From Chrysomallon squamiferum (lineage: Eukaryota; Animalia; Mollusca), in the NCBI GenBank assembly GCA_012295275.1, contig CM022666.1, positions 13,640,001 to 13,704,000 of the forward strand: 64,000 nucleotides of DNA. The letters are read 5' to 3'. The first letter of the stretch is position 1. Each line of letters starts with the position of its first letter. Below the pieces are notes generated by a model, which did no database searches, was not told where the DNA came from, and saw only the letters and a list, made by a program, of their open reading frames with translations. Below are positions 14,401-17,400 of the stretch, one piece after another. Made by a program: the position numbers and the translations under genes.

Positions 14401-17400
14401 TTTCCACCTGCACTGTCAGATGATCACTGGGCTGCAGAGTGACCTCCCCTTCCCTATCCAGGGCACAGCCAGAGCAGTGAGTGGTGTACATACAGCGAGA
14501 ACAGTGAAGTCCCTTGGAAGAGAATAAAAAATAAATAAATAAATAAATAAATAAAATATATAAAATAAACTGAATAAAACAGAATGAAATGAAATAAAAC
14601 AAATAATAATAATAATTAGTATTAATTTAAATTTGTAAAATAATAAGAGAAAAAAAAATAAAGAAAAAATATATATCATGAGGGAAAACTTTTTCGATCA
14701 AAAATGTTTAATGAATATATTTCATATAATGACACTAGATTGGAAACCAGCCATGTTATTTTTAGTTGCTACTCATCAATTAGCAGCAACAGATCTTCAA
14801 CTTGCACCATTCCCATAACAAGACAGCACACACCACAGTTTTTAAAACATTATACAGAGAGAACTGTACAGAAGATAAATCTCTGATGAGAACAATTTTA
14901 TACTGAAATAATGAACAAAACAGCAGCTAGCCCCCTTCAGGGCCAAAAGTTGCCCTCATTTGGTCAAGATGATCCTAACTATGGACCAGATTTGGGTCAC
15001 TCTGGGTCAGATAAATGGGCTAGCTGAAACGTCCACTGTGATGCCTGAAATCTAAGCAACACGTACTAGGGAGGTTGTATCAAGTTTTAAACAGACTCAC
15101 CTGCCCATCTGTAAGTACAATGGTGTAAATGGCAGGGTGGGGCAACAGGCTGTCAATTTTCTGATACAGCAGCTGAGCTGACATGGTATTGGGTAAATAC
15201 AAAATGTTTGGGTGACCAAACAGTTGCAATTTCTTGTCAGACGTCTCCATTCGGAAAGCTATAGGTATTGCAATCACCCTGGAAAATAAAAAAATTATAT
15301 ATCTCTGAGGTGACCTCCTTTTACAGCAAGTATTATAAGTTTAATCTCATAAAAATAAAAACTGAACTGAAAATAAATTATATTTTGGATAATCTCTTAT
15401 TAAGAGAGATGGATGTAATATAAGTAGATAAAAAAAATCTGGAATGTGACTTGTAAGATAATTTTTTTATATAAACAGAAATTGCATTAATACTATCCAG
15501 AAAAGACAAATATTTGAATGAAAATAAACAAAATTTAAGAAATGGCCCAAAAATGGTTTGTACTCCAAGCAACAAGCTGTAACAAGCTGTAACAAGCTCC
15601 AGGTGTCTGGTACTTGGTAAGGTTTGAACTCACTCACCTCTGTTTGTGTTTCAGACTCCCTGAGTGGGCCAGAGGCAAAAAGTCATCTTCCACCGAGGCT
15701 GGGGTCAGACATATCTATAATAATAATAATAATAATAATAATAATAATAATAATAATAATAATAATAAATAATATATATATATATATATATATATACAAA
15801 AAAAAATATAATAAAAAATAATAAAAACAATAATAATAATAGAAATAATAATAATAATAATAATAATAATAATAATAATAATAATAATAATAATAATAAT
15901 AATAATAATAATAATAATAAAAAAAATAAATAAATAATAAATAAAAATAAAATAATAATAACAGAACTGTTTTGGATTTTGGAATATTTCATATTTTAGA
16001 GATTAAGGAGACAGCATGAGAACAGGATCTAAGTCTAAATATGAATTCTATTTATTTTTTATCAACATCTTATACAGACTACAGGATTACGTGCATTTAC
16101 AAAGTGCCAGTTATAAAGATGGTAAACTGCCACAACTCTAAGAGTCTTTTATTTATCTAATATCTCATGATAATTTTTTGTCTGCTTCCTCAAAAACAAA
16201 CAAAACTGACAACAAAAGTCACAAAATCATTGCTGTGTTTCATCAGACATCTGAAAAACAAAAAAATGTTATCATTTATAATTTTAAAATTTACATTTTT
16301 AAAGACAAATAATGTTTTCTATACACATGCATACAGATTAATAACATTATTTTAATTTTAAATCAAACTTTACTTACTGGACAACAGTATGTTAAATCAT
16401 TGCTGTGTTTCATAGACATCTGAAAAACAAATAAATATTCAGTATAATAATAATATTTCACATTTTGAAGAAAGAAAATTATCTTAGCAGTTCCATAACA
16501 GATTGGAAAATGTGATTGTTGAAGACAGATAGGTTAAAATAGAACATGAAATAATGCAGAATCTATTTAAACTATTTCTATAAAGGGTTAGCTAACAAAA
16601 CATAACTTGGAAATATTTTTAATTGTATTGTTTTTTTAACCTCAAGATCATTAATGGGTTTAACAAGAAAAAAACAATTTAAATTTCAGCATTATTAATA
16701 TATTTAGACTATTTGATTCTGTCAAAAAATGTAAAGAATTAAAACACAACTTGTAAGTAAATTTAGACTATTACTAACAGGTATAGAAACAAAATGAAAC
16801 TACTAAACTAGTAAATAAATTTAGACTGTTACTAACAGGTACAGAAAAAAAACGTAACTTGTAAGTAAATTTAGACTATTACTAACAGGTACAGAAACAA
16901 AATGTAACTGGTAAGTGCATTGAGACTGTTTCCAGACAGAGATAAATAAACAAAACATAACTGGTAAGTAAATTCAAACAGAGGCAGTGTTTAAACGAGT
17001 CTTACCTCCAGACAGCTCTGGCAGAAAGTCCCTCCACAAGTGTGCACCAGTAACTCACTATCCGACAATTCTTCCAGACAGATAGCACACGATCTCCACT
17101 GATCCAGTATTCCTGCTGATCCGGTCCCGACGTCTGACGGTGTGGATTCTTCAGCTGTTCCACCCGGCTGGTCCCACAGTGGTTCAGAATCGAGACCCAC
17201 ACTGGACCACTCCCACATGCCCGTCCCTGCTAGGTCTTCGTGGTCATACTTCCGTGTGTTGACGCTGTCAGTCTGTGCAACACACGAGTCTGTCAGATCA
17301 ATGGAACCAGGCGAAGACACCACAGGATGGACGTGCGATGTTGCTGATGTAGTTGTTGTTGTGGACTGACAGTTCTGCACTGATGAAAACTGGTATTCAG

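Follow-up and report, generated by a model that had tools for sequence, protein, structure and literature searches.

The stretch of DNA analysed here, referred to throughout as the window, comprises 64,000 nucleotides of Chrysomallon squamiferum contig CM022666.1 and carries on its minus strand a gene for a ubiquitin-specific protease (USP) with a RING-type zinc finger in the middle of its catalytic domain. The gene consists of at least 13 coding exons running from 22241 to a stop codon at 11484, which were delimited by tblastn with the closest homologue and by their AG/GT ends and are open throughout (Table 1). The closest relative of its product is an uncharacterised protein of Gigantopelta aegis with 77% identity. 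The finger is split over three exons that join into an open frame with AG/GT at all six ends, and the splice gives the Cys/His pattern that had been quoted for it in the preliminary description.

Transcription of the spliced form is seen in assembled RNA contigs from runs of one study, which report on its presence and not on its level. The intron between 17006 and 16419 is skipped exactly in contigs of all three runs, the joints 17650/18380 and 18546/19156 are likewise seen in three of three, and the joint 15278/15638 is seen in three of four. For the joint 16378/15714, the loose end at 16378 is identical to the opening 30 bases of the exon at 15714 (three of three runs), the loose end at 15714 is found on the other side in all four runs, and the two exons lie next to each other within single contigs (1174-1251 then 1252-1293 of the X2 record, 874-915 then 916-993 of the X3 record). 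RNA contigs hence join all three exons, and the finger-coding pieces listed from them match the window at every base. The next intron holds a degenerate copy of the 42-base exon (16200-16276, minus strand, with an acceptor, at 16250), which was considered as an alternative exon and rejected because a one-base insertion leads to a stop codon and because it has no coverage in the RNA contigs of three of three runs.

Table 1. Coding exons of the finger-bearing USP gene and position of the finger, in window coordinates.
Feature	Position	Strand	Basis
Candidate first coding exon, acidic N-terminal tail	23564..23722	-	AG acceptor, open frame
Exon with USP Cys box, catalytic Cys codon 22191	21970..22241	-	tblastn, AG/GT ends, open frame
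Exon with end of box 2, ~435-residue variable insert, start of box 3	19802..21271	-	tblastn, AG/GT, open frame; 19802 end = RNA loose end at 19249
Exon with first CxxC of USP fingers zinc site and end of D1 half	19156..19249	-	RNA joint; USP15 alignment
Exon with first predicted ubiquitin-like unit of insert	18380..18546	-	RNA joints; weak USP7_C2 matches in orthologues; strand/helix order in model
Exon with end of first ubiquitin-like unit, poorly conserved Ser/Thr-rich linker, finger ligands 1-6	17006..17650	-	RNA joints at both ends; tblastn
42-base exon with central RING helix including conserved second His, seventh ligand and Pro	16378..16419	-	RNA contigs, 0 differences
77-base exon with eighth ligand and RING tail	15638..15714	-	RNA contigs, 0 differences
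RING-type finger (C2HC5), split over three exons	15709..17098	-	Sequence and homologue counts; fold from Gigantopelta orthologue
Exon with second predicted ubiquitin-like unit	15101..15278	-	RNA joints; fold inferred from model
Exon with Cys cluster C-x2-C-x5-C-x-G-C (14503-14465), end of insert, start of D2 half	14283..14512	-	RNA contigs; motif in 35/36 homologues
Exon with second CxxC of USP fingers	13816..13932	-	tblastn, AG/GT, open frame
Exon with USP box 5 region	13134..13279	-	tblastn, AG/GT, open frame
Exon with His box (His 12399) and third triad residue Asn 12348	12270..12413	-	tblastn, open frame, USP15 alignment
Last coding exon with stop codon	11484..11764	-	tblastn, open frame

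The gene encodes a USP deubiquitinase and its product is a predicted isopeptidase, with the catalytic triad (Cys 22191, His 12399, Asn 12348) intact, in order and in one open frame, and with the Pfam UCH family above cut-off in all 22 family proteins scanned. The closest solved catalytic domains are those of USP15, USP4 and USP11, with E of about 1e-68 in a PDB sequence search and a TM score by target of 0.8 for USP4 and USP15, and in 32 of the 33 members in which a Cys box was located, it is no more than about 190 residues away from the N-terminus. A variable insert of about 435 residues between USP boxes 2 and 3 (19850-21200, minus strand) is much shorter in Hydra and in homologue P0036 and contains short conserved islands, seen by eye, in the mollusc, arthropod and hemichordate members.

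The D1/D2 split point of the window USP coincides with the site at which the USP15, USP4 and USP11 crystal constructs were cut, and it is exactly there that a long insert with the finger is found, between the Cys box and the His box as had been proposed. The insert comprises, in order, a predicted ubiquitin-like (Ubl-like) unit, an unconserved linker, the finger, and a second predicted Ubl-like unit with the Cys cluster, followed by the His half. This layout was modelled on homologue P0036, with a mean pLDDT of 66 and insert domains mostly at 70-89, and weak USP7_C2 matches, below cut-off, occur over the first Ubl-like unit in the Hydra and Rhopilema orthologues. The preliminary description had set the finger against the Ubl insert of USP4/11/15; the insert site is indeed the same, but in the model the finger is an addition to the Ubl insert that sits between two predicted Ubl-like units and replaces neither. 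The cluster C-x2-C-x5-C-x-G-C (14465-14503, minus strand), present in 35 of 36 homologues, is likely to be a further zinc site.

In the window the finger reads C-x2-C-x11-H-x-C-x4-C-x2-C-x14-C-P-x-C, with ligand codons at 17089, 17080, 17044 (His), 17038, 17023, 17014, 16383 and 15711 and a Trp at 17098. The eight likely ligands, in the order C-C-H-C-C-C-C-C, are kept in 87, 87, 87, 86, 86, 87, 86 and 86 of 87 distinct homologous segments, which is the conservation in orthologues that had been called for as a check. The pattern is not a product of chance, as 84 of the 87 hold it in full and the three misses are truncated, gapped or insertion-bearing gene models. Mean identity to the window over 31 homologues is 0.55 for the finger and 0.53-0.55 for the catalytic boxes, and 0.09 for the adjoining linker. 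A Trp three residues before the first Cys (82 of 87 segments) and a second His in the finger helix (81 of 87) are conserved as well and may mark a family-specific contact.

The finger had been classed in the preliminary description as a RING-HC domain, of which the RING part is borne out by the model and by fold and profile searches and the HC part is not: His as the fourth ligand (C3HC4) is lacking, the ligand order is C2HC5, and the canonical His column, two residues after the third Cys, holds Gly in 48, Cys in 34 and His in 0 of the 87 segments. The His upstream of the third Cys is probably a substitute zinc ligand, as had been suggested, since it is invariant even in members with Cys in the canonical column. 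Its spacing of two residues before the Cys is, however, peculiar to the window and Gigantopelta (two of the 79 segments that fit a strict spacing pattern, with five crustacean segments outside it), and H-x2-C is found in 69 of the 79.

The fold of the finger was modelled on the Gigantopelta orthologue, whose 70-residue finger is 87% identical to that of the window, with a pLDDT of 83 and a pTM of 0.69. In a wide fold search with VIA-align the model matches the RING of TRIM30 (Z 6.9, rmsd 2.6, 62 residues aligned) and RNF4 (Z 6.8, rmsd 2.5, 60 aligned). U-boxes and RBR RING1 domains are matched as well; Z reaches 6.9 in the wide search and 7.7 in a second one, values that are middling on the tool's own scale (Z < 8). 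The best Foldseek match has a probability of 1.00, a TM score of 0.68 and an E of 1.3e-3, with no match at E 0.001 or better. RING and U-box entries ranked first in three fold searches, the central RING helix is present in the model, and flanking helices of the TRIM dimer type are absent from the 70 residues modelled. A PDB sequence search with a 21-member finger profile returned only RING ligases at the top (RNF4 at E 2e-6, RNF13, TRIM2, TRIM5 and TRIM32), and five Pfam RING families match all 21 members of the finger alignment (best E 1e-8), with member 1 passing three RING cut-offs. When whole proteins are scanned, the RING matches fall below the Pfam curated cut-offs, and the architecture may therefore be overlooked. 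A search of the ESM Atlas yielded nothing usable for the isolated finger and, for the Hydra protein, just generic USP clusters. The finger is accordingly predicted to adopt a RING/U-box fold of two loops, a hairpin and a central helix. That it is instead a PHD/ADD-like or other treble-clef reader is very improbable: the H-x2-C-x4-C-x2-C spacing is PHD-like, and weak matches are found to PHD in 11 of 21 members (best E 0.005) and to zf-4CXXC_R1 in nine of 21, but the RING families score far better. Neither of the two VIA-align fold lists, of 50 rows each, includes an entry named as PHD or B-box, which in itself does not speak against either fold. The preliminary description had named lack of a predicted RING fold, unconserved cysteines and missing transcript support as outcomes that would speak against it, and none of these three came true.

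Members of the family were collected by three word-indexed homologue searches (21, 30 and 70 proteins) and one full profile search, which gave 494 clusters at E 0.001, of which the best 150 were considered. Named members come from nine phyla and include a sponge (Corticium), cnidarians (Hydra, Rhopilema), many molluscs, a brachiopod (Lingula), a nemertean (Lineus), arthropods (chelicerates, crustaceans and hemimetabolous insects), echinoderms, hemichordates, and chordates represented by the amphioxus Branchiostoma and the tunicate Clavelina. The invertebrate USP lineage that had been guessed at is therefore wider and older than supposed, reaching from sponge to amphioxus. Among RING-bearing proteins of at least 500 residues, one or more USP box motifs occur in 100 of 101, and all three strict motifs in 68 of 101. 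No vertebrate is found among the named matches listed, which derive from the word-indexed searches and from the best 150 of the 494 profile matches with 28 of 125 new ones looked up and many nameless, and the family thus appears to be absent from, or lost in, vertebrates. The feature is real, expressed and deeply conserved, and marks out a pan-animal orthogroup of USPs whose catalytic domain houses a C2HC5 RING-type finger.

In a FastTree tree of 32 rows the molluscs, arthropods, ambulacrarians and non-bilaterians are grouped much as in the animal tree, which fits a single ancient animal orthogroup without a name; the tree is midpoint-rooted with no outgroup, carries long-branch warnings and was built without USP31, USP43 and USP32 sequences. 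P0053, P0211 and many short ENA/Logan records form a large subgroup beside the sponge and cnidarian members. Out of 145 short records, 60 stop at the point that corresponds to the 17006 intron of the window and 51 at the point that corresponds to its 16378 intron, with one record in both groups and one outside them; these ends probably reflect read-through into introns at conserved positions.

It is improbable that the gene belongs, as an invertebrate orthologue with a lineage-specific addition, to a named family (USP32, USP4/15, USP19 or USP31/43) and that its architecture is already on record. The best solved-structure matches to USP15, USP4 and USP11 argue for such an assignment, as do the automatic names USP32, USP15-like or USP4(-like) given to the Hydra, Rhopilema, Branchiostoma, Ptychodera and Nymphon members, the UCH and zf-RING_2 Pfam labels that have already been assigned together automatically in some database records, and the second Cys cluster, which we take to resemble that of USP32. 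The automatic names (USP4, 5, 6, 15, 32) are, however, mutually inconsistent, with most members labelled uncharacterized, and the branching of the family tree mirrors that of the animals, as for a single orthogroup. DUSP, MYND, CS and EF-hand domains have no Pfam match in any of the 22 family proteins scanned, and in the absence of DUSP and MYND the family does not belong to USP4/11/15/32/19 by architecture. USP32 and USP19 fall into the same subgroup of USPs, in which the inserts are Ubl-like. USP32 contains an EF-hand and DUSP upstream of its catalytic domain and a Cys cluster ahead of D2, and USP19 has N-terminal CS domains and a MYND zinc finger in its insert. Compared with these two, the window family differs in its lack of EF-hand/DUSP, CS and MYND matches and in that its inserted finger is RING-type. 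With USP4, USP11 and USP15 the family shares the nearest catalytic domains and the D1/D2 split by a Ubl-containing insert (Ubl-like and predicted here), but it is without an N-terminal DUSP-UBL, has a RING in the insert, and has its boxes 2 and 3 separated by a further large insert. According to a study of USP4/11/15, DUSP-UBL domains are present in these proteins, and its listing of separate sponge and limpet members of the group also argues against an assignment to it (PMC4624187).

The conserved residues of the finger bear on its possible function. RING domains contact the E2 through Ile, Leu and Pro residues of their loops, which is established RING biochemistry. At the corresponding loop positions the 87 segments have Ile in 82 and Val in 5, Leu in 85 and Met in 2, an acidic residue (Glu or Asp) in 87 and 87, and Pro in 86. 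In the helix, four residues beyond the sixth ligand, the residue is small as in RNF4 (Ser in 61, Thr in 14 and Ala in 10). The alignment with RNF4 shows in common the Ile two residues after the first Cys, the hydrophobic and acidic residues after the second Cys, the Ser four after the sixth ligand, and the Pro after the seventh. As Ile, Leu and Pro also help the domain to fold, their conservation is no proof of E2 binding. The linchpin column after the last Cys, where RING ligases commonly though not always have a basic residue, is free, with Ser in 20, Leu in 15, Arg in 13 and Gly in 11 of the 87, and Leu in the window. Relative to the RNF4 and TRIM RINGs, which are the best sequence and fold matches and of which RNF4 has the same loop residues and helix Ser, the finger differs in being C2HC5 as opposed to C3HC4, in having no conserved linchpin Arg and no predicted dimer helices, and in being embedded in a protease.

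The interpretation that we favour, at just short of an even chance, is that the inserted RING of this ancient USP orthogroup docks a ubiquitin-charged E2, with weak or partner-gated ligase activity and editing in cis by the USP core. The finger would form two cross-brace zinc sites, the second with the upstream His taking the place of the facing-strand His of canonical RINGs, and would bind the E2 through its two RING loops and central helix. Transfer of ubiquitin would be weak or partner-gated, because no linchpin is conserved, and the USP core would trim or reverse the RING product in cis to give a self-contained write-and-erase enzyme. Loop-loop binding between E2 and RING is stated in a study in which the bridging residue was present in only 61% of modelled cognate E2-E3 pairs (PMC12919000), and the TRIM32 RING is described as active with Ser at the linchpin in a paper that gives linchpin loss as one feature of the RING pseudoligases TRIM6 and TRIM22 (PMC11992055). 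Weighing against this interpretation are the free linchpin column, the lack of TRIM-type dimer helices in the model, the middling fold scores with RING matches of whole proteins under the Pfam cut-offs, and the roles of the CYLD zinc module described below.

The lack of a conserved linchpin also suits a different reading, in which the RING fold is real and the domain is a pseudoligase that, by docking or oligomerisation, tethers the deubiquitinase to a partner, be it another RING ligase, an unactivated E2, itself or a location. Such modules have a precedent in CYLD, where a zinc-binding B-box inserted in the USP domain serves self-association and localisation and is dispensable for deubiquitinase activity (PMC5584213), and RING pseudoligases are documented (PMC11992055). 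The conserved Trp and the second His of the helix are surface candidates unrelated to the classical E2 face. Against a pseudoligase, residues at the classical E2-contact positions hardly vary between sponge and chordate members and the closest sequence and fold matches of the finger are active ligases, so that we regard this reading as a substantial possibility falling somewhat below even chances. CYLD resembles the window USP in having a small zinc-binding module within the USP domain and differs in that its module is a B-box, whereas the window finger is a RING with E2-contact positions kept; CYLD is not among the 60 PDB sequence matches listed for the window USP.

Extended to evolution, the E2-docking reading would make the protein a USP that doubles as a RING E3, a single-chain ubiquitin editor going back to the last common animal ancestor. 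Its C2HC5 RING would activate E2~Ub with no linchpin, and the protein would have persisted in nine invertebrate phyla, amphioxus and tunicates among them, and disappeared from vertebrates; this fuller version is given somewhat less than an even chance. The term ubiquitin-editing enzyme, applied to the gene from the start, accordingly denotes a candidate role about as likely as that of a docking module. Deubiquitinases and E3 ligases often work in pairs, and A20/TNFAIP3 combines a deubiquitinase and a zinc-finger ligase in one chain. The likeness to A20 lies in the proposed ubiquitin-editing logic, and the difference is that in A20 the protease is of the OTU type and the fingers are of the A20 type, in place of a USP and a RING. 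An editing complex is mentioned in PMC5811474.

If the finger is a ligase, the family offers a compact and testable model of one-chain ubiquitin editing and of linchpin-free RING catalysis, and compact members such as that of Hydra (714 residues) are suited to expression. Even as a pseudoligase it would represent an ancient animal deubiquitinase family missed by human-centred surveys, with a new arrangement of RING zinc ligands and an apparent loss in vertebrates. To our knowledge no USP with a RING of its own has been described, and the full-text literature searched, the scope of which excludes most subscription papers, yielded no account of one inserted in a USP. A paragraph on USP architectures names zf-UBP, RPT, MYND, DUSP, UIM, UBA and others and no RING (PMC4327156), and the two text matches to "ring" in a human-centred study of deubiquitinase evolution are both unrelated (PMC5381560).

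Several other coding features are found in the window. An ORF of about 240 residues at 49358-50272 (plus strand) is exon-like and has no clear Pfam family, with an SPRY/NHR-type beta domain suggested by eye only. A run of long overlapping ORFs at 42022-47286 (plus strand) begins with a RING-like Cys pattern and a B-box and continues into low-complexity charged sequence, with frame breaks near 44000, 44400 and 46100 that may be introns, errors or decay. A single long ORF with RING and B-box matches at 35951-37465 (minus strand) is TRIM-like. The exon at 2779-3969 (plus strand) belongs to a gene for a serine carboxypeptidase S28 (E 1e-19), and downstream of it are many tandem copies of the 3′ end of this exon together with its splice donor region.
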